Assembly: GCA_003249315.1 (NCBI GenBank)
Contig: QKJM01000968.1
Span: forward strand, 1-12,609
Source of the DNA: Archangium sp.
GTDB lineage: Bacteria; Myxococcota; Myxococcia; Myxococcales; Myxococcaceae
Direction: 5' to 3'
Length of the DNA: 12,609 nucleotides
Below are positions 1 through 12,609 of the stretch, one piece after another; the stretch's first letter is position 1; every line of letters begins with the position of its first letter. The position numbers and the translations under genes were made by a program. The notes under the pieces are model-generated. The model saw only the letters and a program-made list of their open reading frames with translations, was not told the DNA's origin and made no database searches.

Positions 1-703
1 CCAGACCCGCTCCATCGGTGCTCATCCGAGTGAGGAGGGACACCAACGCGTCCGCATCCTCCTCGGACAGGCGCCGGGTGAGGATGAGACCATCCGACAA
101 CGTGGACTCGGTGAAGAGGAAGGGGCGCAACCGACGCTCGTCGAGCCCCACATAGGTGGCCAGGCTGGCCCGCAGGGAGCACTCGTCCGGGTGGTTGGCG
201 AAGAGCGCCGCCACGTCCGCCTCCCCGGAGAGCACCGCATCCAGCGCCTTGCGGTACGTACCGTGGAAGCGCTGCTCGCGGAACACCTCGTCCGGGAACA
301 TCCCCCGCGACTCCAGGTGCCGCACCGGCAGCAGATACCCGCCAGTGGAGCGCGGAGCCACCCAGGCCACACGCTTTCCCTTCAGGGTCTCCAGGGTGAG
401 CGGCTCCTCCGCCCGACACACCAGCGCCGAGTGGTAGTACCAGCTCCCCGAGCGCACCGATCGCAGCACCGCCCGCGCCCGCGGCTCGAAGGCCGCACAC
501 TGCTCCGCCGTGCCCCAGGCCATCTCCACCCGACCCGCCGCCAGCTCCTCCTCCAGCAACTCGTAGGTGGGCGCCAGCTCCACCACCACCGGCCGCCCCA
601 TTCTCTCGGACAGCACCCGCCCGAAGAGATCGACCTTGACGTGCTCCCGCACCTCCCCCAGCGAGGGGTAGAGCAGGAATCGGATGGGGCTGGATGAAGA
701 CAT
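1..703 (-). CDS. Partial CDS (N-terminal ~234 aa; continues beyond the left edge). Cytoplasmic PhnD/SsuA-like periplasmic-binding-protein-fold domain protein (phosphonate-binding-type PBP2 fold) with no signal peptide.
   Basis: Hand translation of the minus strand from ATG at 703..701 gives MSSSSPIRFLLYPSLGEVREHVKVDLFGRVLSERMGRPVVVELAPTYELLEEELAAGRVEMAWGTAEQ...GKRVAWVAPRSTGGYLLPVRHLESRGMFPDEV...ALFANHPDE... with no stop down to position 2. It is missing from the ORF track because it has no stop in the window. G/C at third codon positions is very high. A GGAGGA Shine-Dalgarno (complement of 715-720) lies about 11 nt upstream, and an in-frame GTG at 706..704 is an alternative start. Pattern resembles the Phosphonate-bd/PhnD family. 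No N-terminal hydrophobic signal sequence. Confidence 0.6.
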   Translation of the reverse strand, partial: MSSSSPIRFLLYPSLGEVREHVKVDLFGRVLSERMGRPVVVELAPTYELLEEELAAGRVEMAWGTAEQCAAFEPRARAVLRSVRSGSWYYHSALVCRAEEPLTLETLKGKRVAWVAPRSTGGYLLPVRHLESRGMFPDEVFREQRFHGTYRKALDAVLSGEADVAALFANHPDECSLRASLATYVGLDERRLRPFLFTESTLSDGLILTRRLSEEDADALVSLLTRMSTDGAGL

Positions 704-871: not shown

Positions 872-3800
872 CTAGCGAGGCTGCATGGTCTGCAGGAGTT
901 GCAGCGCCTCCGTCACCGCCTTCCAGACCTCCATCGCCTTGAGGCTCTCGTCCCCACCCTGGAGCGTCCGCTTCGCCAGCCGCTCCAGTGGCTCGAGCGC
1001 GCTCTCCACCAACAAGAGCTGCTTGCCCAGCTCCGCCGGGAGGGGCGCGCCTCTCGGAGCAGGCATCGGCGAGCGATCGGCCATCAGCTTCATCGCTTGC
1101 GACATCTGATCCATGTAGCGCCCCAGATCCGCCGGAGGCACCGGCGCCTGCGTCGCCGGCCGCTCCGCCACCGTCCTCACCACCTGCGTCAACTGCTCCA
1201 TCAGCGGCGTCAGATCCGTCGTCGACGCCGCCGGTCGATCCGAGAGCGCCTTCAGCAGGTGCGCCAGGTGCTTCAGGTAGGGCGTCAGATCCGGCCCCTG
1301 CACCACCGGCGCCGGCAGCTCCCGACTCGCCAGCTCCAGCAACGCCTCCCTCAGCCCATCCAACCTCGGCGTCACCTCCGCCATGGGGGGAGGCCCCTCC
1401 GACTTGCGCGACACCTCCGCCGCCCGCACCACCGCGTCCCTCACCGAGCCAAGCTGCTCCTCGATGGCTCCGAGCTGGCCCGTCACCCGAGCCACCGGAT
1501 CATCCTCCTTCCCGCCCATCCTCTTCACCCGCGCGAAGCCCTGCTTGATCTCCTCCCAGCGCTTCGCCTGCTCCGGCTTCAGCCGCCCCCGCAGCTCCTG
1601 CAGCTTCAGCAGGTTCTGCTCCGCCGCCGTCGTCAGCGTCTGCGACTCACCCTGGTAGTGGTCGTCGAGGAGCCGCTCCAGCTCATCCTCCGTCATGGCC
1701 GCGACCACCTTCTCGGTGATCTTGCTCATGTTGCGGTAGCTGCCCTGCAGCTTGAAGGGAGGCTCCGTCCGGAAGCGATCGTCCTGCGCCGCCGAGGCGA
1801 TGTACTCCAGGTTCACCTTCAGCAGCACCTCCTGCACCTTGAACAGCCGCTGGAACACCGCGACGATCTCCTGCAGCTCCGCCGCCGCGTACCCGTGCGA
1901 CAGCTCACCACTGGGCACCTCCTCGCCCTTCGCCATGCGGATCAGCTTGTAGATGTCTCCCGGCTCCCGCGTCGCCAGAGGCTGCAGCACCGCGCTCGAC
2001 GTCAGCGCGTTCTCGACGTAGCTGAGCGCGAACAGCTCCTCCTTGCCGTCGAGGATGTCACCCAAGTTGTAGGTGTCCGCGCGGTTGGCGAGCATGTCCG
2101 GAATCCGGAAGCGATCGCCCGTCTCCGTGTATGGGTTGCCCGCCATCACCACGCAGAACTTCTTGCCCCGCAAGTCATACGTGCGCGTCCGCCCGTTCCA
2201 CACGCCTTCGATCCGGCGCTGACCGTCGCACAGCGAGATGAACTTCTGCAGGAGCTCCGGATCCGTGTGCTGGATGTCATCGAGATAGAGCATCACGTTG
2301 TTGCCCATCTCGAAGGACAGGTTGATGCGCTCCACCTCCTGGCGCGAGGTGGCGTTGGGCGCCTCGGCCGGATCCAACGACTTCACCGAGTGGCCCAGCG
2401 CCGGGCCGTTCACCTTCACGAAGGTGAGCCCCAGCCGGCTGGCCACGTACTCCATCAACGTCGTCTTGCCGTAGCCCGGAGGGGACATGAGCAGCAGCAT
2501 GCCCATCCGGTCCGTGCGCTTGCCCTCCCCCGCCGCGCCGAGCTGCTTGGCGAGGTTGGCGCCGATGAGGGGCAGGTACACCTCGTCGATCAGCTTGTTG
2601 CGCACGAAGGACGAGAGCACCTTCGGCGTGAACTCCTCCAGCCGCAGCTTGCGGCGCTCGCGCTCGAGCAGATCACGCAGCAGCGCCCGGTACGCGTGGT
2701 AGGCCGGCACGCGCTCCTGCCGGAAGGCGCTCAGCCTCTCCAGGAACTCGTCCAGCCGGAGTGACAGCGTCCGGTCGTGGATGCGCGGGTGCTGACCCAG
2801 CAGCCCCGTCACCTCGGTGGAGGTGAGCGCGCCGGCCACCTCCCGATCCACCTTGCGCTCGGTGAGCAGCACCACCGCGGCCTCGGCCGCCACGTGCCCG
2901 GCGGAGCCCGGACCGCCCTCGCGCCGCGCCAGGAACGCGTCCACCCAGGCCCGCACCACTCGCACCCGCTCGGGCAGGTTCTTCGCCAGGCCCCGCATGT
3001 CCTCCTCGAAGGCCGAGCGCGTGTTGGAGCGATCCAGGTGCGCCAGCAGCGCCTCCGCGAGCGCCGACGCCTCCCCGCTGGTGGTGAAACGAGGACGCTC
3101 CACCCCGAGCTCCTCCACCAGGTAGCGCCCGGCCAGCCGCGCCTCGGCGGGGCCATGCGCCACGCCCGTCGCCTCGAGGAAGGCGCCGATGCGCCCGCCC
3201 AGCTCGTCGCCCAGGGCCAGCAGCTCCGCGGCCTCGCCGAAGGCCTGGCGCAGCCGGTGCAGGCTGCGCGCCCGCCGGTGGAAGAGCGCCTTGCCCTCCG
3301 CGTCTCCGTCGAAGGCCCAGAAGAGGACCGCCCAGGCGCGCGGCGTGGGAGCGAAGCGCAGCAGCCCCGCCCCCGTGTGCATGCCCAGCAGCTTCTCCAG
3401 GATGGCCGCCGCGTCCGCGTCGTGGATGCCGCGCTCATAGCCCTCGTCGTACTTGTCCGAGGCGTACGCGCGCACCTGCTCCAGCAACCCGTTGCTCTCC
3501 AGCGACGCCTGGTGCAGCGCCGCCAGCGTCAGGCTGCCCTTCCCCTCCTCCGCGGCGAACAGCACCTGCGCCGCCAGGTACTCGGCCCGGTACACCTCCG
3601 GTATCTCCGAGACCAGGTGCTGCTCCCAGAGCGCGCGGTACTTCTCCAGCTCCGGATCCTCCAGCTTCTGCGCGTAGTCCGTGCCGGTGAGCTGCATGTA
3701 CAGCGCCCCGTCACGCGGCAGCAGCGTCAGCTCCAGCGTCTGCGTGTTGACGTTGAAGCGGTGCTTGCCCAGTTTGATCACCGGGGCGCCCGAGCCCTCC

Positions 3801-6364
3801 TCGAAGAGCTCCTGCCTGTCGCGAAGCGCGCGCAGCGCGTCCTGGCGCGCCGTCTTCAGCCGGCTGAGCACCTCGTCCGAGCGAACGCTGTCCTGGAGCT
3901 CCAGGAGCTGATCGGCGAGCTGCCGCAGCTTCTGCACCATGGAGTCGGACGCGAAGTAGGAGTTGAGCTCGTCCTCGGCCTTGAAGGACTTCGCCCGCCG
4001 GTTGACGCCAGAGAGGATGCGCTCGGCGGCCCCGAAGAGGTTCTGCGCCCGCCTCTGGCGCTCGTCCAGCAGCGTCTGCTTCTTCTGCCCGAAGGCCTCG
4101 AAGATCTCCTCGCGCTTCTCCGTGAGATCGCCGAGGAACTCGTCGAACTCGCCGAAGCGGCCCTCCATCTCCTCGAGCTGGACGGTGATGCGCGAGAGGC
4201 CCTCGTCACACTTCTCCGGGGTGTCCGCCACCGAGAGGGCGCTCTCCACCGCCTGGCCGAGCAGCTTGAACTGGGCGCCGAACTCCACCCGCTTCTCGCG
4301 GCCCACCAGCTCCTTGCGCTTGACGGAGAGGCCCGCGCGCACCCGGTTGAGGCGACTGAAGAGCTCGGAGATGCCCTCGAGGATGCGGGCGCGCGCCAGC
4401 GGATCCCCCACCTGCAGCCCGCCCACCGTCTCGCTCAGCCCCTCCAGCCCCTTGCCCACCTGCCCGACGTCCTCGCCCAGCGGCTCCAGTTCCTGCGTCG
4501 TCTGGATGGGCTCCAGCTTCTCCAGCAACTCCTCCAGCCGGGTGGCCAGCGGCGCCAGGGCCTCCCCCTGTTGGAGGAACTGCACGGCGTCGGTGCTGAC
4601 GCGGTCCGTCTCCTCGACGACCTGCTTCTCCAGGGCCTCGAGCCGCGCCACGTCGACGTAGCGCACCTCCTTGAGGGTGATGAGGTGGCCGCGCTGCTTG
4701 CGCAGCTCCGACAGGGCGTTCATGTAGCCCTCTGCGTTCTGCAGCTCCTCGGGCCGCACGCGCAGCAGCACCTTCTCCTGGGCCTCCGAGGCCTCGGCGA
4801 TGGCCTCCTCCGCCCGGCTGCGCAGCGCGAGCACCTTCTCGAACTCGTCGATGATGAGCTCGGAGGTTCGGTGCAGCGTGGAGATGGACTCGGTCAGCCC
4901 CACCTCCTCGTGCGAGAGCCAGTAGTAGGCGTCCGGCATGCGCGTGGCCGCCGAGGCCAGATCCTCATAGGTGCGCCGGGAGGGCTTCTCCGTGCGGGCC
5001 ATCCGCACCAACGTCAGCGCGTCGGAGATGCCGCGCACCAGCTCCGCGTTACCCACCTTCCCCAGGTAGCCGGGCGCCGGAGGCTGCTGCGCCGCGTGCT
5101 CGTCGGAGAAGAAGGGCGTCTGCCACACCTGCATGGGGTGGACGCGAGTGGGCTCGTTGGAGGTGGCGCGGAAGAGCGCCAGTTGCCCGTCATCGAAGAT
5201 GCTGAAGCCGTGCCCCAGCAGCGGGTTCTGCACCTCCTTGCGCACCAGGTTGTACGGGAAGAGGACGTAGCTGCCTTCGTCCCTGCGGTGGAAGACGTAC
5301 AGCACGTCCTCCCCGTTGGGCGACTTGAGCGCCCGCTTGAACTCCAGGCCGTCGCCCACGTCCTCGAAGAGCTTGTAGTCCCCCGTCTGCAGGTAGTAGC
5401 CGCCCGGGAAGACGATGCCCTGATCCTCCGGCAGCCGCACGCACGCATGGCCGATGGCGTCGATGCGCACCACGTGCTGGGTGCGCGTGTTGAACACCAG
5501 GTAGCGGTGCTTCTGCTCGCGGAAGGGCAGCACCCGCAGGAGGATGAGGGCCCCCACCTTCGCGTAGGCGAACTCGGCGTCGTCCAGCGATTGATCCGGA
5601 TCATCCACCGGCTCGCGGTAGATGCCCCGCCCGTCCGCGGTGTTGTCCTCCACCTTGACGGTGAGATCGCCCTTCACCGTCTCCACGAACACCTGATCCA
5701 GGATGTTGACGTGGGGGTGCTCGCCCAGGACGTAGTCGTCCCGCGTGGCCACCGTCCACTCGAAGTCATGCGACGGCGGGAAGACGTGATCGCGCTCGCC
5801 CTGGTTGTCGATGTAGGAGGCGTTGCCCTCCTTGTCGAGCGAGAAGCGGAAGACCTTGATGTCCCGCAGCGACTGGCCCGTCTGGAAGATGGCCAGCAGC
5901 TTGTTCTTGTCGCGCCGAAGCTGCAGGAGCTTCGCGTCCTTGTAGTACTTGTAGAGTTCGCCGAAGTCCTTGACGAAGCGCGGATCCTGCAGGAAGCCAC
6001 CCGCCTCGGTGGTGGGAACCTCGCCGAAGTCGAAGCCCTCGGACGTCCGCTCGAACCTGTGCAGCGAGAAGACGTCCGCCACGGACGTCTCCTTCTTCAG
6101 CCCGATGAAGACGTTGTAGCCGAAGAGCAGGTACTTCCCGATGTTGACGATGTCGCGCGGGACGCAGTTGTTCTCCGTGCGCACCCGCTCGTTGCCGATG
6201 ACGGCGAGCTCCGTGCCTCCGAAGAGCTTCTTCCGCCGCTCGTTGAGATCCGTGGCCTTCGCGCCGAGCGTCTCCGCCTGCGCCAGCAGGCGCGCGCGGA
6301 TGACCTCGTAGCTACCGCCTTCCAGCGTGGCCTCTCCCGCGGGCGTGGGGGTTTCTGTTGCCAT
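872..6364 (-). CDS. Giant (~1830 aa) soluble multidomain protein with an N-terminal beta-rich ~480-aa region, a long alpha-helical/coiled-coil middle region, and one clear AAA+ ATPase module of the AAA_5 / MoxR / McrB-like type at about residues 1290-1450. A ~350-aa helical, Pro-containing C-terminal region follows.
   Basis: ORF track gives 872..6412 minus, 1846 aa. P-loop LLLMSPPGYGKTTLMEYV fits the xPPGxGKT AAA consensus. Walker-B-like NVMLYLDDIQHT parallels the hhhhDEINRA motif of AAA_5/MoxR. CVVMAGNPYTETGDRFRIPDMLANRA parallels the MoxR sensor-1/Arg region NPxExxGxxxLPxAxxDRF. No TM segments or signal peptide. Preferred start is ATG at 6364..6362 (MATETPTPAGEATLEGG...). The track start at 6412 is a GTG preceded by GGGAGAGGGA, which lies inside a hairpin. 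TAG stop at 874..872. Confidence 0.8.
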   Translation of the reverse strand: MATETPTPAGEATLEGGSYEVIRARLLAQAETLGAKATDLNERRKKLFGGTELAVIGNERVRTENNCVPRDIVNIGKYLLFGYNVFIGLKKETSVADVFSLHRFERTSEGFDFGEVPTTEAGGFLQDPRFVKDFGELYKYYKDAKLLQLRRDKNKLLAIFQTGQSLRDIKVFRFSLDKEGNASYIDNQGERDHVFPPSHDFEWTVATRDDYVLGEHPHVNILDQVFVETVKGDLTVKVEDNTADGRGIYREPVDDPDQSLDDAEFAYAKVGALILLRVLPFREQKHRYLVFNTRTQHVVRIDAIGHACVRLPEDQGIVFPGGYYLQTGDYKLFEDVGDGLEFKRALKSPNGEDVLYVFHRRDEGSYVLFPYNLVRKEVQNPLLGHGFSIFDDGQLALFRATSNEPTRVHPMQVWQTPFFSDEHAAQQPPAPGYLGKVGNAELVRGISDALTLVRMARTEKPSRRTYEDLASAATRMPDAYYWLSHEEVGLTESISTLHRTSELIIDEFEKVLALRSRAEEAIAEASEAQEKVLLRVRPEELQNAEGYMNALSELRKQRGHLITLKEVRYVDVARLEALEKQVVEETDRVSTDAVQFLQQGEALAPLATRLEELLEKLEPIQTTQELEPLGEDVGQVGKGLEGLSETVGGLQVGDPLARARILEGISELFSRLNRVRAGLSVKRKELVGREKRVEFGAQFKLLGQAVESALSVADTPEKCDEGLSRITVQLEEMEGRFGEFDEFLGDLTEKREEIFEAFGQKKQTLLDERQRRAQNLFGAAERILSGVNRRAKSFKAEDELNSYFASDSMVQKLRQLADQLLELQDSVRSDEVLSRLKTARQDALRALRDRQELFEEGSGAPVIKLGKHRFNVNTQTLELTLLPRDGALYMQLTGTDYAQKLEDPELEKYRALWEQHLVSEIPEVYRAEYLAAQVLFAAEEGKGSLTLAALHQASLESNGLLEQVRAYASDKYDEGYERGIHDADAAAILEKLLGMHTGAGLLRFAPTPRAWAVLFWAFDGDAEGKALFHRRARSLHRLRQAFGEAAELLALGDELGGRIGAFLEATGVAHGPAEARLAGRYLVEELGVERPRFTTSGEASALAEALLAHLDRSNTRSAFEEDMRGLAKNLPERVRVVRAWVDAFLARREGGPGSAGHVAAEAAVVLLTERKVDREVAGALTSTEVTGLLGQHPRIHDRTLSLRLDEFLERLSAFRQERVPAYHAYRALLRDLLERERRKLRLEEFTPKVLSSFVRNKLIDEVYLPLIGANLAKQLGAAGEGKRTDRMGMLLLMSPPGYGKTTLMEYVASRLGLTFVKVNGPALGHSVKSLDPAEAPNATSRQEVERINLSFEMGNNVMLYLDDIQHTDPELLQKFISLCDGQRRIEGVWNGRTRTYDLRGKKFCVVMAGNPYTETGDRFRIPDMLANRADTYNLGDILDGKEELFALSYVENALTSSAVLQPLATREPGDIYKLIRMAKGEEVPSGELSHGYAAAELQEIVAVFQRLFKVQEVLLKVNLEYIASAAQDDRFRTEPPFKLQGSYRNMSKITEKVVAAMTEDELERLLDDHYQGESQTLTTAAEQNLLKLQELRGRLKPEQAKRWEEIKQGFARVKRMGGKEDDPVARVTGQLGAIEEQLGSVRDAVVRAAEVSRKSEGPPPMAEVTPRLDGLREALLELASRELPAPVVQGPDLTPYLKHLAHLLKALSDRPAASTTDLTPLMEQLTQVVRTVAERPATQAPVPPADLGRYMDQMSQAMKLMADRSPMPAPRGAPLPAELGKQLLLVESALEPLERLAKRTLQGGDESLKAMEVWKAVTEALQLLQTMQPR

Positions 6365-6415
6365 CGTCAGTTCACCGGGATGGGTTGGAACCAGGAATGC
6401 GAGCACCCTCACCCC

Positions 6416-6460
6416 GTCCCTCTCCCAGAGGGAGAGGGGTTCTTCCCTCGGTGGAGGGAC
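6416..6460 (-). other. Two tandem GC-rich stem-loops in the 140-nt flotillin-to-ATPase spacer, with no U-tract. Possible RNA stability/attenuation or processing element; not a canonical intrinsic terminator.
   Basis: Perfect 9-bp inverted repeat CCCTCTCCC (6418-6426) / GGGAGAGGG (6430-6438) with a 3-nt loop, extendable by G-U pairs at 6416-6417 and 6439-6440. Second hairpin TCCCTC (6444-6449) / GAGGGA (6454-6459) with loop GGTG. Neither is followed by a T-run on either strand. Confidence 0.4.
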
Positions 6461-6504
6461 AGGGGCGAGGGTACCGGGACTGCTTGGATCGCCAGGTGAT
6501 CAGA

Positions 6505-8676
6505 TCACTCGGTGCTCTTGTCGCCGCGGAGCGGCTCCGCCTCCGAGAGCGTCTTCATCTGGTTGGCCGCCACCGCCGGCGCCGCCTGCGCGGGCACCAT
6601 GCGGTGCAGCATCGCCGCCATCGCCAGGTTCTGCGCGTCGTTGGTCAGCCCCGGCCTGGAGAGGATCTCCTTGAGGTCCGCCGGCAGATCCTTCTCGCCG
6701 TTGAGGTAGCCGGCGAAGGCCTTGCGCAGCGTCTCGCCGTGCTCCAGCGCGCCATCCACGGACTGGCCCACGGAGATGGCCTTGATGAAGCGCTCGAAGA
6801 ACTGGCCGTCGCCGCCGACGATGTTGACCTTCGCGTTGCCCATCGTCTCGGAGAGCACCTTGGCCTGGGCCTCGGCGATCTCCTTGCGCACGCGGATCGT
6901 CTCCAGCTCCACGTCGCGCTCCTTCTGCAGGCGCAGGCGGAACTCCTCGTGCTCGCGGGTGACGCCATCCAGGGCCTTCATGGACTCGGCCTTCTCGGCC
7001 AGGCCGCGGGCCTCGGCCAGCAGCTTCTCCTCGATCCCCTTGGCCTCGGCGAGCTGGCGCTCGCGGATGGCGATGGCCTCGGCCTCGCCGCGCTTCTGCA
7101 TGGCCTGGGCCTCGGCCTCCTGGATGCGGGCCTGGGCCATGCCCTTCTCCTGCGCACCCGCGGCCTCGGCCAGCAACTGCTCCTTGGCGGCGACGGCCTG
7201 GGCCATGCCCTGCTTCTCGATGACGGCGGCCTCGGCCTCCTTCACCCGCACCTGGGCCATGCCCTGCTTCTCGACGGCCTGCGCGTCCGCTTCCTTCACG
7301 CGCACCTGCGCCAGTCCCTCGGCGGCGGCCTCGGCCTGGACGCCCTCGGCCAGCCGCATCTTCGCCTTGGCCGTCTTGTCCGAGGCCTCCAACTCGGCCT
7401 CGGCCAGGGTCAGCTTCTCCTTGGCGGCGAACTTGGCCACCTCGTTGCTGGCCTCGGCGGCCTTGATGTCCTTGACCAGCTTCTCCTGCGCCTGCGCCTC
7501 GGCGGTGATGAGCAGCGCGTCCTTCTTGCGCGTGGCCTCGGCCTTCACGCGCAGATCCTTGATGCGCTCCTCCTCCTCGGCCACCGTCTTCTCCACGGCG
7601 ATGCGCGCGCGCACCACGTCGGCGATGGCCTTCTTCTCCGCCTCGAGCGCCTTCTCCTTGGCGATGCGCTGCAGCTCCACCTCGCGCTCGCGGTTGATGG
7701 CCTCCAGGGCGCGATCCTTCTCCACGCGCTCGGACTCCACGCCCACCACGCGCTCGCGGTTCTTCTGGGCCACCTCCACCTGGCGCTGCTTGTTCTCCTC
7801 GTTGATGAGGATCTCCTCCTGGGCCTTGATGCGCGCCAGGGAGGCCTTGGCGTGCTCCTCGGCCTTCACCCGCTCGGCCTCGGCGACCTCCCGGGCCTGG
7901 ATGCTGTCGATCTCCCGCTTCTGCTTGGCGGCGGCCTCGGAGCGCTGGCGCTCGAGCGCGAAGATGGCCTCGTCCGACTCGACGTTGCGCTTGGTGATGG
8001 CCATGCGCTCGTTCTGCCGGAACTCATTGGTCTCGACGTTGCGCAGCGAGGTCAGCTCGGTGATCTTCCGGATGCCCTGGGCGTCGAGGATGTTGTCCTT
8101 GTCCAACATCTCGATCGGGGTCTGCTCCAGGAAGTCGATGGCGCAGTCCTCGAGCATGTAGCCGTTGAGGTCCTTGCCGATGACCTTGATGACCTCTTCC
8201 TTGATCTCCTCGCGGTGGGTGTAGAGCTGCTCGAAGTCGAAAATCTTTCCCGCGGTCTTGAGGGCCTCGGAGAACTTGGCCTCGAAGAGGTTCTCGAGCG
8301 TCTCCTGGTGGCTGGCGCGGGCGCAGCCGATGGACTGAGCCACCTTGAGCACGTCCTCGCGGGTCTTGTTGACCCGGACGAAGAAGGTGACCTTGATGTC
8401 CGCGCGGATGTTGTCCTTGCAGATCAACCCCTCCTTGCCGCGGCGGTCGATGTCGACCGTCTTGAGGGAGATATCCATCACCTCGGCGCGGTTGATGATG
8501 GGCCACACCACCGCGCCAGTGAAGGTGACGACCGGATCACCCTTGAAGGGGTTGATGATCAGCGCCCGTCCCTGATCCACCTGCCGGTAGAACCTGGAGA
8601 CGATGAACGCCGCGCAGAAGATGAAGAAGAGGATGCCGCCAATGGCGAGCAGGACTGTGACGATCGGAAGTTCCAT
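6505..8676 (-). CDS. Flotillin / SPFH (band-7, PHB) domain protein of the YqiK/FloT type with one N-terminal TM helix, an SPFH domain, and an unusually long E/A/K/R-rich coiled-coil region (723 aa total).
   Basis: ORF track 6505..8718 minus. N-terminus MELPIVTVLLAIGGILFFIFCAAFIVSRFYRQVDQGRALIINPFKG...DISLKTVDIDRRGKEGLICKDNIRADIKVTFFVRV is typical of a flotillin TM plus SPFH start. EA-rich heptad-like coiled coil runs through the middle. Flotillin-like C-terminal region ...NIVGGDGQFFERFIKAISVGQS. Preferred start is ATG at 8676..8674 (Met15 of the track ORF) with AAGGA just upstream; the track start at 8718 is GTG. TGA stop at 6507..6505. Confidence 0.88.
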   Translation of the reverse strand: MELPIVTVLLAIGGILFFIFCAAFIVSRFYRQVDQGRALIINPFKGDPVVTFTGAVVWPIINRAEVMDISLKTVDIDRRGKEGLICKDNIRADIKVTFFVRVNKTREDVLKVAQSIGCARASHQETLENLFEAKFSEALKTAGKIFDFEQLYTHREEIKEEVIKVIGKDLNGYMLEDCAIDFLEQTPIEMLDKDNILDAQGIRKITELTSLRNVETNEFRQNERMAITKRNVESDEAIFALERQRSEAAAKQKREIDSIQAREVAEAERVKAEEHAKASLARIKAQEEILINEENKQRQVEVAQKNRERVVGVESERVEKDRALEAINREREVELQRIAKEKALEAEKKAIADVVRARIAVEKTVAEEEERIKDLRVKAEATRKKDALLITAEAQAQEKLVKDIKAAEASNEVAKFAAKEKLTLAEAELEASDKTAKAKMRLAEGVQAEAAAEGLAQVRVKEADAQAVEKQGMAQVRVKEAEAAVIEKQGMAQAVAAKEQLLAEAAGAQEKGMAQARIQEAEAQAMQKRGEAEAIAIRERQLAEAKGIEEKLLAEARGLAEKAESMKALDGVTREHEEFRLRLQKERDVELETIRVRKEIAEAQAKVLSETMGNAKVNIVGGDGQFFERFIKAISVGQSVDGALEHGETLRKAFAGYLNGEKDLPADLKEILSRPGLTNDAQNLAMAAMLHRMVPAQAAPAVAANQMKTLSEAEPLRGDKSTE
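7090..7310 (-). repeat. In-frame tandem repeat of about 54-66 nt, roughly 4 imperfect copies, inside the flotillin coiled-coil region. It encodes 18-22-aa units of the form EKQGMAQVRVKEAEAxAV.
   Basis: Repeated plus-strand unit CCTGGGCCATGCCCTGCTTCTCGA(TGA)CGGC...CTCCTTCAC(C/G)CGCA visible at 7131-7196, 7197-7250 and 7251-7304, with a degenerate copy near 7090-7130. The protein shows GMAQVRVKEADAQAVEKQGMAQVRVKEAEAAVIEKQGMAQAVAAKEQLLAEAAGAQEKGMAQARIQEAEAQAMQKRG. Confidence 0.7.
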
Positions 8677-8778
8677 GTCCTTGTCCGAGCAGAGAAGACC
8701 AGAGGGGGCTTGTACCACGCGACCGGAGACCCCCGTGAGACCCCCCCGGTGCGCCAGAGAAATGTCATGTGAGGCGAC

Positions 8779-9558
8779 TCACCGCGTGCGCATCCTGTCG
8801 CGGGCGACGGCCGCCGCGGTGAGCGGATCCTTCAGGTGCTGCAGTTCCTCGGGCAGGAGCCAGTCCACGGGCTCCACCTCGTAGGCGTCACGGGACGGAT
8901 CATACCCGAGGATCAGCGCCCGATCTCCCCGCTGGAGTTCGTTCGCCTTTTCGCAGAAGACGTGAAGCAGGAGGCCGGCGCCGCCATCCTCGAAGTTGGC
9001 CTGGCCGAACCCGCCGTCCACCTTGCTGCTGGAGATGACGCACACACGCCCCAGGAGCGAGTCGCGGCGAGGGGCCTGGTTCACGGCGAAGACGGGGCGC
9101 AGGGGCCGTACGGCCAGGCCCGCGAGCCCGGTGCCCACCACGAGGCACAGCACGGACAGCACCCCACCGACGAGCACGCCTGGCAGCGCGCCGAGCAGGT
9201 TGCTCGCCGGACCCGACAGCGCCAGCGACAGCAGCCAGGAGAGGAAGATGGCGAAGCTGAGGGACACCGTCACCGGCACGCCGCCGAAGCCGAGCACCTC
9301 GAGGAAGCTGGCCCCCGCCTTGGCGCCTCCCTCCATCGCGCCCTTGGCCCCGGCCTCCATCGCGCCCTTCACCCCGCCCTCCAGGGCCTCGCCCGCCCCG
9401 GCCTTCGCGCCGAGCGCGAAGTCGCCCAGGTCTCCATCCAGGAGATCGATTCCCACCGCGCCGATCATGACGGTCAGCCAGTAGCCGAGCACCACTCCCA
9501 TGGGGATGGTGAAGAGCACGGTCGGGAAACTGAGGATGGTGTGGAGGAATTCGGTCAT
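8779..9558 (-). CDS. NfeD/YqiJ-like flotillin-associated membrane protein with three predicted TM helices, a Gly/Ala-rich loop and a C-terminal OB-fold beta-barrel domain.
   Basis: ORF track 8779..9675 minus (the 9675 start is GTG). The first in-frame ATG at 9558..9556 gives MTEFLHTILSFPTVLFTIPMGVVLGYWLTVMIGAV (TM1). Further hydrophobic helices at FAIFLSWLLSLALSG and LPGVLVGGVLSVLCLVVGTGLAGLAV. C-terminal ...LLGRVCVISSSKVDGGFGQANFEDGGAGLLLHVFCEKANELQRGDRALILGYDP matches the short-NfeD OB-fold pattern. It sits immediately upstream of the flotillin gene, the same order as E. coli yqiJ-yqiK. TGA stop at 8781..8779. Start choice is uncertain because there is no clear SD for either start. Confidence 0.72.
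   Translation of the reverse strand: MTEFLHTILSFPTVLFTIPMGVVLGYWLTVMIGAVGIDLLDGDLGDFALGAKAGAGEALEGGVKGAMEAGAKGAMEGGAKAGASFLEVLGFGGVPVTVSLSFAIFLSWLLSLALSGPASNLLGALPGVLVGGVLSVLCLVVGTGLAGLAVRPLRPVFAVNQAPRRDSLLGRVCVISSSKVDGGFGQANFEDGGAGLLLHVFCEKANELQRGDRALILGYDPSRDAYEVEPVDWLLPEELQHLKDPLTAAAVARDRMRTR
9315..9400 (-). repeat. Short in-frame tandem repeat of about 24-27 nt inside the NfeD-like gene, encoding a Gly/Ala/Lys-rich loop.
   Basis: Plus-strand CCTCCATCGCGCCCTTGGCCCC / GGCCTCCATCGCGCCCTTCACCCCG / CCCTCCAGGGCCTCGCCC units. The protein shows EGGVKGAMEAGAKGAMEGGAKAGA. Confidence 0.5.
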
Positions 9559-9737
9559 CGGGCTTCGGCCAAGGAGAGGGAACGGAGTGTATTCCAGGGG
9601 TTGGGGGGCCTGCCTAGCCCCTTCCGGTCGATTCCCCGCCCGCCATCCCCCCAGGCGGAAGGGGCGGGACGCCACGGTGGGGAGAAGGCGCCGCTGAACA
9701 TGCTCAGGGGAAGCGAGAACCCGCTAGGCTCCGGCCC
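9559..9737. promoter_or_regulatory. Divergent intergenic region of about 180 bp between the NfeD-like gene (minus) and the 2OG oxygenase gene (plus). It should contain both promoters and carries a GC-rich inverted repeat.
   Basis: Inverted repeat CCCGCCC (9635-9641) / GGGCGGG (9662-9668) with a ~20-nt spacer. Weak -35-like TGAACA at 9695-9700. No strong sigma-70 consensus is visible, as expected in high-GC genomes. Confidence 0.35.
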
Positions 9738-10448
9738 GTGAGCGAGTACGTCACCCACCGCGCGGCCCTGAAGGGGGCGCAGCTGGAGTCCCTGAGGGAG
9801 GCGCTGCTCTCCTCGCGCTTCGTGGGGCGGAGCCAGTTGATGGGGACGTTCCAAGGCAGCCGGGGCTTCGCGTTCATCTTCACGGAGGCGGGTCGGGCGA
9901 CGCTAGAGGCGCGCTTCCCCTTCCTCCGGGAGTACCTGGCGCTGGCGATGGAGCCGGCGAGCTGGCGCGGGCTGCTGCCCTGGCGGGAGCGGCTGTTCGG
10001 ACCGAGGCCGGAGCGCCGGAGGCCCAACGCCTTCTATCTGAACCTCCTGCTGGTGGAACCCGGCAAGAGCGTGGGCCGGCACATCGACGCGACGCTTCAA
10101 GGCCCGAGCGGCGTGGAGGGGGCGGTGCCAGAGCACGTGAGCGTGCTGTACCTGGCCGTTCCGAGGGGAGCGAATGGCGGCGAGCTGGTGATGACGCGCG
10201 GGCAGGAGTGGCTGGGCGTGGTGCGACCGAGAGAGGGGATGCTGGTACACTTCCGGGGAGACCTGATGCACGAGGTACGGCCCTTCACGGGAGCTCTCGA
10301 GGGGGCGCTGCGGGCGAGCCTGGTCTGCGAGCAGTACGCCTTCGAGCCCGAGGCCCTGGCACGACTGCCCGAGTTCCGGATCCAATCCAAGGCGGGTTTC
10401 ACGGCGTACCTGGAGGAGCACCGCGCCCGGACTACGGCTGAGACATGA
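9738..10448 (+). CDS. 2-oxoglutarate/Fe(II)-dependent dioxygenase superfamily protein (prolyl-4-hydroxylase-like fold).
   Basis: ORF track 9738..10448 plus, 236 aa, GTG start. Facial-triad pattern HxD...H plus RxS in canonical spacing: VGRHIDAT (H-I-D), then about 60 aa later GDLMHEVRPF (distal His), then LRASLV (RxS 2OG-binding) about 15 aa further. The overlapping minus ORF 9903..10421 is a Q/R/L/P-rich shadow. TGA stop at 10446-10448. Confidence 0.7.
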   Translation: MSEYVTHRAALKGAQLESLREALLSSRFVGRSQLMGTFQGSRGFAFIFTEAGRATLEARFPFLREYLALAMEPASWRGLLPWRERLFGPRPERRRPNAFYLNLLLVEPGKSVGRHIDATLQGPSGVEGAVPEHVSVLYLAVPRGANGGELVMTRGQEWLGVVRPREGMLVHFRGDLMHEVRPFTGALEGALRASLVCEQYAFEPEALARLPEFRIQSKAGFTAYLEEHRARTTAET

Positions 10449-11799
10449 ACGTCTCGAACTCGAGCCGTTCCATCTTGCGCGAGAGCACCCCCAGCCCCGT
10501 GAGCGCCGTCACGTACACCGCCCCCGCATAGCCGTACCCGTAGAAGCGCACGCCCAGCTCCAGTGTCAGCAGGGTCAGCCCCACGTTCAGCAGCAGCAGC
10601 AGCCCCGTCAACCCCAGCGCCACCCTCCGCTGATCCAGGTAGAAGAAGACGTTCAGCACCGCCAGCAGCAACACCTGCCCTCCCGCCGCGACGAGATCCA
10701 CCCCATACAGCGGCAGGTAGTACGGAGAGAGCCCCCACGCCTCCAGGACCCGCGGCCCCGCGAGCAGCAGCAGGAGGATCGTCAGCCCCTGCACCTTGAA
10801 GAGCTCCTCCAGCCCGCGGCGCACCGCCGCCACCATCCCCCCGCGCAGCCGCTCCAGCTCCCCCAGCTTCCCTCCCCTTCGCACCGAGGCGTAGAAGTCC
10901 GCGTGCTGCTCCGCGAAGTCCGTCTCTATCCGCACCAGGTACACCGCCATCCCCGGGATCGTCGAGAGGCACGCCAGGAACATCGGCAGGTCATACAGGA
11001 CCGACGCGCGCAGCGGCCCCAGCACCGCCTCCGAGGTGGACGGGTTGCACCAGAACAGCAGCTTGTCCGACCAGATGCCCAGGTTGTACAGCAGCCCCAC
11101 TCCCGCCAGCCCGTAGAGGGCCTGCCCCCTCCGCAGGAAGTCGAAGGACACCAGCCGCCTCAGGGGATGGCGACGCAGCACCAGCGCCAGCAGCGTCACC
11201 AGCATCCACCCCTGCCCCACCAGGAAGCCCGCGAGCAGCCCCTCCAGCCCGAAGGGCCTCAGCCCCAGCGCCGCCCCCACCGACAGCCCATAGCCGAGCA
11301 GGAACGTCCACAGCACCGCCCGGTACTCCTTCAGCCCCGAGAGCATCACCACCAGCACCCAGAGATCGCAGAGCACCACGAAGCACGACAGCAGCAGCAA
11401 CCGCACCGTCAGCGGCTCCCGGAACAGCAGCCCCAGCACCCCTCCCGCCAGCAGCGCGCTCCCCACCGTCGTCAGCCCCAGCGCCCCCAGCAGGTTCGGC
11501 AACACCCGCGCCGTCTTCCCCTCGTAGAGCCGATCCGCCACGAACCTCGACAGCAAGAGCTGCAGCGGCCCCGTCGCGATCAGCGAGCACGCCATCATCC
11601 ATGTGATCGACACCAGGAAGGGACTCGACACCACGCCCTTCTCACCGCCCGCTCCCAGCGCTCCGATCACCATCATCCCGCAGATGGAGAACACCCACGG
11701 GCCGGAGGAGATCAGCCTCGCGTACCCGTAACCCCTCAGAAGGCCCCAGAGGCTGTCGTCTCGGAAGAGCTTCCGCAGCTCGAACCCGATCCCCGCCAT
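10432..11799 (-). CDS. pelG: PelG-like polysaccharide exporter of the MOP/PST flippase superfamily, 12 predicted TM helices, ~455 aa.
   Basis: ORF track 10432..11856 minus. The internal ATG at 11799..11797 is preceded by GGGGAGG (complement of 11804-11810). It gives MAGIGFELRKLFRDDSLWGLLRGYGYARLISSGPW..., which I recognise as the characteristic PelG N-terminus (P. aeruginosa PelG is ~456 aa). Highly hydrophobic throughout, with a cytoplasmic loop ...ETDFAEQHADFYASVRRGGKLGELERLRGG. It follows a GT4 gene as in pelF-pelG. TAG stop at 10434..10432. Confidence 0.65.
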   Translation of the reverse strand: MAGIGFELRKLFRDDSLWGLLRGYGYARLISSGPWVFSICGMMVIGALGAGGEKGVVSSPFLVSITWMMACSLIATGPLQLLLSRFVADRLYEGKTARVLPNLLGALGLTTVGSALLAGGVLGLLFREPLTVRLLLLSCFVVLCDLWVLVVMLSGLKEYRAVLWTFLLGYGLSVGAALGLRPFGLEGLLAGFLVGQGWMLVTLLALVLRRHPLRRLVSFDFLRRGQALYGLAGVGLLYNLGIWSDKLLFWCNPSTSEAVLGPLRASVLYDLPMFLACLSTIPGMAVYLVRIETDFAEQHADFYASVRRGGKLGELERLRGGMVAAVRRGLEELFKVQGLTILLLLLAGPRVLEAWGLSPYYLPLYGVDLVAAGGQVLLLAVLNVFFYLDQRRVALGLTGLLLLLNVGLTLLTLELGVRFYGYGYAGAVYVTALTGLGVLSRKMERLEFETFMSQP

Positions 11800-12609
11800 G
11801 CCGCCTCCCCGAGCGCCCCCCGATAGATGGCCCGGTAGCTGTCGAACATCATCCACTCATCGTAATAGCGCTCCACGCGAGCAATCCCCGCTGACCGCGC
11901 CGCCCTCCACCTCCCCTCATCCGTCAGCAGCCCCAGCACAGCCCGCGCCGCCGCTTCCGGATCCGAGATCGGCACCACCTCCCCCGCCGCTCCCAGCGCC
12001 CTGTCGTCCTTTCCACTCCCCTCGATCAGCTCCCTGCACGCGCCCACGTCCGTGCTCACCGCTGGCAGGCCACTCGCGAAGCCCTCCAGCAACACCAGGG
12101 GAAGCGCCTCGCTGATGGAGGTGAGCATCAACAGTCCCAGCTTCGGCAGCACCGCGTCCGGCTTCTGGAAGCCCAGGAACCTCACCCGCTCCCCCAGTCC
12201 CAGGCTCTCCACCAGCCCCCGGCACTCCCTCGCGTACGCCACGTCCTCGTCCTCGGGGCCGATGATCCACCCCTCCGCCTCGGGCATCCGGTTGCACACC
12301 AGCCGCATCGTCCGGATGAAGGTGCGGATGTCCTTGATGGGCACCACCCGCCCCAGCAGCCCCACCACTGGAGGTACCCTCTCCGGCCGCGCCTCCCTCA
12401 ACGCCGCGAAGCGCCGCACCGCCACCCCGTTGGGCACCACCCGCGTCCTCTCTTCCGGCGCCCCGTCCCTCACCTGCCGCTGACGGTTGCCCTCGTACAG
12501 TGCCACGATCGGATCCGCCGCCGCGTACGTCATCCGCCCCAGCCCCTCGAAGAAGCGGATCCACAGCCGCCGCAGCGCCCCCAGCCCTCCCTGCTTCCCT
12601 CCCCCCTCC
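11736..12609 (-). CDS. pelF: Partial CDS (C-terminal ~290 aa; the N-terminus lies beyond the right edge). GT4-family (GT-B fold) glycosyltransferase, PelF-like.
   Basis: The frame of track ORF 11736..12533 stays open upstream to the window end (...EGGGKQGGLGALRRLWIRFFEGLGRMTYAAADPIV...). The C-terminal Rossmann half carries the GT4 E-x7-E motif in ISEALPLVLLEGFASGLPAVSTDVGACRELIE, plus RVRFLGFQKPDAVLPKLGLLMLTS. TGA stop at 11738..11736, overlapping the pelG-like start by 64 nt. Confidence 0.7.
   Translation of the reverse strand, partial: EGGGKQGGLGALRRLWIRFFEGLGRMTYAAADPIVALYEGNRQRQVRDGAPEERTRVVPNGVAVRRFAALREARPERVPPVVGLLGRVVPIKDIRTFIRTMRLVCNRMPEAEGWIIGPEDEDVAYARECRGLVESLGLGERVRFLGFQKPDAVLPKLGLLMLTSISEALPLVLLEGFASGLPAVSTDVGACRELIEGSGKDDRALGAAGEVVPISDPEAAARAVLGLLTDEGRWRAARSAGIARVERYYDEWMMFDSYRAIYRGALGEAAWRGSGSSCGSSSETTASGAF

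Follow-up and report, generated by a model that had tools for sequence, protein, structure and literature searches.

A giant AAA+ ATPase gene that accompanies a YqiK-type flotillin and its NfeD-like partner in Archangium sp. and in other bacterial phyla

Results

Organisation of the gene trio

The window analysed here, the complete 12.6-kb contig QKJM01000968.1 of Archangium sp. (12,609 nucleotides (nt), G+C content 68%), carries three head-to-tail open reading frames (ORFs) on its minus strand, which encode a YqiJ/YuaF-type (NfeD2) membrane protein (9558..8779, 259 amino acids (aa)), a YqiK-type flotillin with an SPFH domain (8676..6505, 723 aa) and a giant soluble AAA+ ATPase (6364..872, 1830 aa). 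The first gene (8779..9558) starts with ATG at 9558 and stops at 8779-8781; the second (6505..8676) starts with ATG at 8676 and stops at 6505-6507; the third (872..6364) starts with ATG at 6364 and stops at 872-874. The NfeD-like and flotillin genes are separated by a minus-strand spacer (8677..8778) with AAGGA ahead of the flotillin ATG, and the flotillin and ATPase genes by a second one (6365-6504), which contains a stem-loop. For the ATPase, the longest possible ORF begins at GTG 6412; the start codons chosen for the trio agree with the N termini of orthologues and with tblastn alignments. According to a homologue search, the nearest relatives of the window are Archangium and Cystobacter species. 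A preceding interpretation of the DNA letters made without database searches (the sequence-only reading) had placed three minus-strand ORFs here, and all of them were found at its coordinates; its spacers of 100 and 140 nt measured 102 and 140 nt.

Neither of the two smaller proteins gave a Pfam match, even at E≤10. Orthologue alignments of both (A2 and A3) were built from related loci and compared with YqiJ and YqiK of E. coli K-12 (NC_000913). The NfeD-like protein possesses about three hydrophobic segments according to hydropathy, followed by a C-terminal soluble domain; its N terminus and an FPTV..F..YW motif are conserved in the orthologue alignment. The orthologue profile was aligned with E. 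coli YqiJ by hhalign with 87.7% probability (E 3.4e-6, 133 columns), and hydropathy and this alignment together identify a multi-pass N-terminal membrane region homologous to YqiJ. The best match of the family among PDB profiles was the soluble domain of YuaF (2k14), which aligned where a C-terminal NfeD-type OB-fold domain would be expected but was weak (E 0.32). Pfam YqiJ_N was matched by one of 23 orthologues, and the orthologue from Hymenobacter is named 'DUF1449 family protein' by the Prokaryotic Genome Annotation Pipeline (PGAP).

In the flotillin, an N-terminal membrane anchor is followed by an SPFH domain and then by a long coiled coil rich in Ala and Glu; the protein has a single hydrophobic segment (residues 1-33) and a stretch dominated by A, E and K (residues 231-620). 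A weak FloT match (20.7 bits) was its only match in NCBIfam, its family gave no match to PDB profiles, and no identical sequence is on record for the protein with either start. Alignment of a 24-sequence flotillin profile with E. coli YqiK (hhalign) returned a probability of 99.9% (E 3.7e-32, 394 columns) and extended through column 465. Homologues at 83% identity carry PF01145 and bear the database names YqiK, SPFH or flotillin; the corresponding Pfam profile, Band_7, was matched by four of the 24 orthologues. Membrane anchor, SPFH/Band-7 domain, Ala/Glu-rich coiled coil and a YqiJ/YuaF-type operon partner, four marks of the YqiK/FloT type (COG2268; SPFH2), are present. The flotillin and NfeD/YqiJ-like labels of the sequence-only reading are backed by these comparisons with YqiK and YqiJ, although Pfam is silent on the two proteins. 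Because Band_7 and YqiJ_N are detected in so few orthologues, many such genes are annotated as hypothetical.

Domains, predicted fold and motifs of the giant ATPase

Pfam assigned to the giant protein the family PF12458/DUF3686 (E 2.8e-207, 446 of 448 profile positions), the family DUF7902 and one AAA module, for which PF00004 (AAA) and PF07728 (AAA_5) both scored above their gathering thresholds. Hydropathy revealed no hydrophobic or transmembrane segment, and the protein is therefore regarded as soluble. The soluble protein of about 1830 aa with an AAA_5-type module that had been anticipated from the letters of the DNA was accordingly recovered. A word-indexed search with a cut-off of E<1e-10 yielded over 5,900 homologues. 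The family comprises 708 clusters at 50% identity; full-length members have 1,590 to 2,036 aa, and identity between phyla amounts to 50-60% across about 1,700 residues.

Two AlphaFold2 models span the protein (residues 1-1084, mean predicted local distance difference test score (pLDDT) 83.0; residues 985-1830, mean pLDDT 79.6). According to these models, an N-terminal helix (residues 18-48) precedes a beta-rich, propeller-like domain of about six to seven four-stranded blades, which forms the DUF3686 core (residues 54-415; 5120..6205, minus strand). This is followed by a long alpha-helical region that resembles spectrin-type helical bundles and includes DUF7902 (residues 420-853; 3806..5107), and by a small beta sheet (residues 862-900) and a helical domain (residues 926-1240) leading to the ATPase (together 2555..3781), for which no informative fold match was obtained. 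The AAA+ module (residues 1274-1634; 1463..2545) is predicted as an alpha/beta core plus lid. The protein ends in a poorly conserved tail (residues 1635-1830; 875..1462) of low pLDDT, rich in Pro, Ala and Leu, with few predicted helices and with alignment columns that are mostly non-consensus.

In the models, the AAA+ fold is nearest to MoxR members, dynein and midasin and not to the classical threading clade, and a beta-hairpin stands ahead of the sensor-1 strand; by its predicted fold the module is of the MoxR class. Members of this class (CbbQ, NorQ, RavA) are remodelling chaperones, not proteases. Walker A reads SPPGYGKT (2462-2485, minus strand), and the aligned homologues show no variation in its GYGKT, in the sensor-1 Asn or in neighbouring Arg residues. 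Walker B reads MLYLDDIQ (2270-2293, minus strand); in every homologue aligned it has an invariant Asp-Asp (LYLDDIQ) in place of Asp-Glu, which is unusual for an active AAA+ enzyme. The PDB profile search found no solved relative of the protein outside the Walker A/P-loop region. The top Foldseek matches included a nucleoporin, IFT-A and clathrin heavy chain, with very low template-modelling scores; the modelled succession of propeller and helical repeat faintly recalls eukaryotic coat proteins, and both regions would suit protein-protein contacts.

Conservation of the trio

An alignment of twelve ATPase homologues was used to scan one genome per GTDB species. Among the first 600 pattern matches, 591 encode a relative; 80 loci were returned, and their neighbouring genes were identified by tblastn with the window proteins and by all-against-all clustering of ORFs. 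In 75 of the 80 loci the ATPase gene is immediately preceded by the flotillin gene on the same strand, and in 72 the NfeD-like gene is present further upstream, with gene order and strand as in the window. Since a contig end truncates three (L010, L046 and L063) of the five loci without flotillin, flotillin adjoins the ATPase in 75 of 77 informative loci (97%), spread over many phyla; the co-occurrence that the sequence-only reading had left to a neighbourhood survey is thereby confirmed. Apart from shadow ORFs, no fourth gene family is conserved around the ATPase in the 80 loci.

The loci span Myxococcota, Actinomycetota, Gamma-, Alpha- and Betaproteobacteria, Planctomycetota, Acidobacteriota and Eremiobacterota. 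A plasmid search adds Bacteroidota (a Hymenobacter plasmid) and Deinococcota (Deinococcus plasmids), together with pQBR103 of P. fluorescens, Streptomyces plasmids and records from Proteus, Vibrio, Photobacterium and Halomonas; the same trio was present wherever these were inspected. The module occurs on megaplasmids as well as on chromosomes (Pseudomonas, Hymenobacter, Deinococcus, Streptomyces, Proteus), and the three genes are retained together in at least eight bacterial phyla. None of the E. coli genomes matched the DNA of the Proteus ATPase gene. When 68 loci are compared, the three proteins co-vary in their identity to the window copies (r about 0.9), a correlation that shared phylogeny alone would partly produce. 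In loci of the Polyangiaceae type (L018, L030, L033 and also L019, L025, L050), an insert of 0.4-4 kb with ORFs lies between the NfeD-like and flotillin genes.

Spacing and co-transcription

Flotillin and ATPase genes follow each other closely in the 75 loci: the median gap is 13 nt, 55 gaps do not exceed 50 nt, and ten loci have reading frames that overlap by exactly 4 nt. These short gaps and overlaps support an operon, and a transcript boundary between the two genes, the outcome that would have spoken against the sequence-only reading, is not evident across the family. In the window, neither spacer contains a consensus intrinsic terminator or a sigma-70 promoter, and the 102-nt spacer folds no better than shuffled sequence (z +0.9). 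The three genes constitute one conserved, co-inherited operon that is almost certainly co-transcribed, and there is very little doubt about the operon together with a functional coupling of its genes.

Flanking genes

Upstream of the module lies an intergenic region (9559..9737) shared with a divergent plus-strand gene. It is probably the promoter region of the module. No sigma-70 consensus was found in it, and a search for a conserved promoter motif 5' of the NfeD-like gene in six myxobacterial loci revealed patchy conservation to which no sigma-factor class could be assigned. The plus-strand ORF (9738-10448, 236 aa) has a borderline match to 2-oxoglutarate (2OG)-Fe(II) oxygenases (PF13640, 27 bits, at the cut-off); it is divergent from the module, whose upstream boundary it marks, and convergent with pelG. 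The genes pelG (PF16933, E 1.5e-139) and pelF (C-terminal part, NF038011, E 7e-117) occupy 10432-12533 on the minus strand and represent the tail of a Pel exopolysaccharide operon, with pelF running past the contig end. As the oxygenase-like ORF separates the trio from pelG and pelF, the module has its own upstream region. On the 3' side of the ATPase gene (1-871) only short ORFs are found (22-372, minus strand; 156-437 and 191-697, plus strand); Pfam matched none of them, and 3' of the ATPase stop codon no site resembling a terminator was called.

Linkage to PspA and other membrane-stress genes

In three gammaproteobacterial loci (L073, L076 and L077) and on pQBR103 (L082), yjfI and a pspA-family gene lie directly upstream of the module. 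The upstream run on pQBR103 (986-14190) consists of genes for YjfI, PspA/IM30, a rhomboid protein, DUF2491, DUF350 and DUF1190 proteins and glutathionylspermidine synthase. On the Hymenobacter plasmid (L083), a Tir-type chaperone gene and pspA precede the module, and in Proteus mirabilis (L084, 3681-5461) genes for LemA and a TPM-domain protein lie divergently upstream of it. The informative neighbours (PspA, LemA, TPM) all have membrane-stress themes, and the system probably belongs to a membrane/envelope-stress network that includes PspA/IM30.

Discussion

Relation to earlier descriptions

Whether the architecture had been catalogued, a point on which the sequence-only reading was undecided, can be answered in the affirmative. 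Ravi et al. 2024 (mSystems, PMC11237479; preprint 2020) described an operon of CesT/Tir, PspA, a YqiJ/YuaF-like three-transmembrane protein, a Band-7/flotillin protein and a propeller-AAA+ protein, with Dokdonia donghaensis ANH61663.1 as an example. They further noted that abbreviated operons without PspA are widely distributed and contain the ATPase 'in some cases', linked TPM domains with PspA in Firmicutes, and drew the same membrane-stress inference from context. The window trio matches their architectures in order (compared with the string in their Table S3). Because the CesT/Tir-PspA dyad is missing upstream of the trio, where the neighbour is the divergent 2OG-oxygenase-like gene, the window holds an abbreviated form of that operon; the full PspA-bearing form is present in L073, L076, L077, L082 and L083. 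Having been catalogued computationally in 2020 and 2024, the trio is not new as an architecture.

Ravi et al. gave no fold class, motif analysis or experiments, and in their account the ATPase joins the pair only in some cases, whereas the ATPase, taken as the starting point, comes with the pair in nearly every case (75 of 77 loci). What is added here is that the ATPase almost never occurs without the flotillin-NfeD pair, that reading frames overlap, that the predicted fold is of the MoxR class, that the Asp-Asp of Walker B is invariant, that a VWA partner is lacking and that the 'DNA repair' name is baseless. The ATPase partner is mentioned neither in the SPFH operon survey of Hinderhofer et al. 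2009 (PMC2636767) nor in a 2026 survey of SPFH proteins in P. aeruginosa; Popp et al. 2022 linked PspA with Band-7, FloT and NfeD proteins in Acidobacteriota, not with the ATPase. A literature search returned no paper naming DUF3686 or PF12458, and nothing relevant on 'DNA repair ATPase' with flotillin or on flotillin with MoxR.

Proposed mechanism

Gene identities, domain architecture, synteny, tight spacing and the linkage to PspA in some lineages are observed, and the best overall explanation for them is an operon of a flotillin, its NfeD partner and a dedicated ATPase that acts on the flotillin-NfeD assembly; we put its likelihood somewhat above an even chance. The flotillin and NfeD proteins would come together as an SPFH assembly on the cytoplasmic side of the membrane, like the solved SPFH-NfeD and flotillin complexes. 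The ATPase would oligomerise via its AAA+ module, would dock onto the assembly or onto clients of it by way of the beta domain and/or the helical region, and would use the binding and hydrolysis of ATP to assemble, remodel or recycle the scaffold during membrane stress. Physical interaction, oligomeric state, direction of remodelling and physiological trigger are all what we infer from the arrangement of genes and domains. Scaffold remodelling as the specific activity of the ATPase falls slightly short of an even chance. A more specific picture, in which a hexameric MoxR-class ATPase with a propeller and spectrin-like arms loads, reshapes or dismantles flotillin-NfeD assemblies on damaged membrane, is rather unlikely in that full detail; by analogy, such a flotillin machine would resemble Vps4 on ESCRT-III or NSF on SNAREs and would work alongside PspA. 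The overall interpretation of the sequence-only reading is thus supported, and its mechanism, remodelling of flotillin platforms or recruitment of cargo to them, is one that we likewise infer.

Several observations weigh against this explanation. The 140-nt spacer of the window folds as a strong hairpin (-70.9 kcal/mol, z = -4.8, with none of 200 shuffles as stable), which could attenuate read-through into the ATPase gene. The claim in the sequence-only reading that the spacers contain no terminator therefore stands as far as a consensus intrinsic terminator is concerned and has to be qualified by this very stable structure. The stem-loop (6402..6475, minus strand, by RNA folding) is GC-rich, lacks a U tract and was not called as a terminator. 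Hairpins of comparable strength but different sequence occupy the same site in loci of Myxococcus, Archangium and Cystobacter (L001, L003 and L004), and most other loci have nearly no flotillin/ATPase spacer and no such hairpin. In several Myxococcaceae/Archangiaceae loci the arms are of the CCCTCTCCC/GGGAGAGGG and ACCCTCACCC/GGGTGAGGGT type, and CCGGTGAAC is conserved immediately 5' of the ATPase start codon. The hairpin would therefore be a local element and not a family-wide transcript boundary; it may be REP-like (repetitive extragenic palindromic) or an attenuator that reduces the output of ATPase relative to scaffold.

Two loci hold the ATPase without its flotillin and NfeD partners. Upstream of the ATPase gene, both L016 (Sorangium sp. 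So ce176; DUF4215/PA14) and L026 (LTD/endonuclease-exonuclease-phosphatase and PIN) carry unrelated genes in the opposite orientation, and a substitute scaffold looked for upstream was found in neither; the ATPases of these loci may be second paralogues. Owing to the invariant Asp-Asp of Walker B, the ATPase may hydrolyse ATP slowly or behave as a nucleotide-dependent switch instead of a motor, as judged from the motif. MoxR ATPases usually work with a VWA partner; the giant protein contains no VWA domain, and no VWA gene is conserved in the 80 loci. Linkage to PspA was seen in only about five of 86 loci, and the literature search found no experimental work on any family member. Locus L026 also contains a GH114-like ORF (7389-8921) on the strand of its ATPase gene.

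Alternative explanations

The operon evidence would be equally compatible with client quality control, in which the assembly of flotillin and NfeD confines membrane proteins that are damaged or unfolded, and the ATPase, instead of working on the scaffold, extracts or unfolds these clients or hands them over, as a protease-less analogue of HflK/C-FtsH. The latter complex sets a precedent for an SPFH scaffold with an AAA+ partner, and FloA-NfeD of S. aureus is reported to stabilise unfolded proteins (PMC11222466). Extraction of clients is nevertheless disfavoured by the modelled AAA+ fold, which is closest to MoxR, dynein and midasin and not to the classical threading clade, by the missing protease domain and by the lack of an obvious aromatic pore-loop motif, which was not found at the expected site after the Walker A strand when the sequence was read; the Asp-Asp of Walker B speaks against it as well. 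We consider this explanation, the main rival, improbable. An anti-phage or other conflict system, whose membrane scaffold and NTPase would detect infection and then damage the membrane, would account for a self-contained module in variable genomic contexts and on megaplasmids, and the ATPase has faint PADLOC matches to IetA, restricted to the Walker A region (E about 1e-3). In PADLOC 2.0, however, the matches of the ATPase to IetA and mad8 are at the level of the P-loop and the other two proteins have none; no copies were found in the phage collection; conservation between phyla (about 1,700 residues at 50-60% identity) is unusually high for defence genes; and the informative neighbours are membrane-stress and not defence genes. 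A role in defence is accordingly very unlikely.

Even less credence is given to the two remaining explanations. That the large protein is a DNA-repair ATPase whose adjacency to flotillin has no functional meaning is suggested solely by a label, namely the description of PF12458 and the PGAP name 'DNA repair ATPase'. The protein contains no DNA-binding, nuclease or SMC-type domain, its matches to RuvB (PDB, NCBIfam) comprise about 45 residues around the P-loop and lie far below the cut-off, repair genes are not conserved neighbours in the 80 loci, and the literature search found no paper that uses the family name; adjacency to flotillin in 97% of the informative loci, with overlapping reading frames, also speaks against it, and we assign this explanation hardly any weight. 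The position of pelF and pelG just upstream, on the same strand as the trio, might likewise indicate that the module serves the production of Pel exopolysaccharide in this genome. The plus-strand oxygenase-like gene stands between pelG and the module, though, and no pelG homologue occurs in any of the 80 other loci, so the pel genes are not part of the module; the absence of pelG effectively refutes the link, which is exceedingly improbable. The flotillin-NfeD operon with its own dedicated ATPase remains our preferred explanation.

Significance and annotation

The role of bacterial flotillins continues to be disputed, and no source of energy figures in the usual account of them. A dedicated ATPase found alongside one subfamily of flotillins in at least eight phyla provides a genetic and biochemical handle on the assembly and turnover of flotillin, and the module likewise gives access to the way in which SPFH scaffolds are linked to the membrane-stress response of PspA. 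Tractable hosts are available in Myxococcus, Proteus mirabilis, Vibrio and P. fluorescens with its plasmid pQBR103. If the hexameric flotillin machine outlined above is real, its ATPase would be the first factor dedicated to regulating a flotillin scaffold at the expense of energy. PGAP labels the ATPase 'DNA repair ATPase' throughout, and its flotillin and NfeD partners often 'hypothetical protein'; both names appear to be annotation artefacts that stem from weak or wrongly labelled models, and thousands of database entries carry the former without support.

Comparison with known systems

The pairs yqiJ-yqiK of E. coli and yuaF-floT of B. subtilis (NfeD2-SPFH2 pairs; Hinderhofer et al. 2009, PMC2636767) encode homologous proteins in the same gene order. 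The window flotillin shares with the YqiK/FloT type the N-terminal anchor, the SPFH domain and the coiled coil rich in Glu and Ala; it is longer than YqiK (723 versus 553 aa) and too divergent to be detected by Pfam Band_7 or PDB profiles. Unlike the window, the yqiJ-yqiK and yuaF-floT operons contain no ATPase.

NorQ-NorD, CbbQ-CbbO and RavA-ViaA pair ATPases of about 250-500 aa with a VWA/MIDAS partner, whereas the MoxR-like module of the window forms the C-terminal quarter of an 1830-aa protein, has Asp-Asp in Walker B and has no VWA gene nearby. PspA/IM30/ESCRT-III with ATPases of the Vps4 type offer an analogy, a membrane-bound scaffold with a potentially recycling ATPase, but neither the ATPases nor the scaffolds are homologous to those of the module. 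PspA is absent from the window; PspA-YdjGHI of B. subtilis includes the SPFH protein YdjI, and in Bacillus an SPFH protein is reported to tether PspA (PMC8581546). In the HflK/C-FtsH and QmcA-YbbJ cages, an SPFH scaffold is combined with a dedicated AAA+ enzyme (FtsH) or an NfeD partner. FtsH, a protease anchored in the membrane, belongs to the classical AAA clade, whereas the window ATPase is soluble, MoxR-like in its predicted fold and devoid of a protease domain; these two cages are the nearest precedent for a machine composed of an SPFH scaffold and an ATPase.

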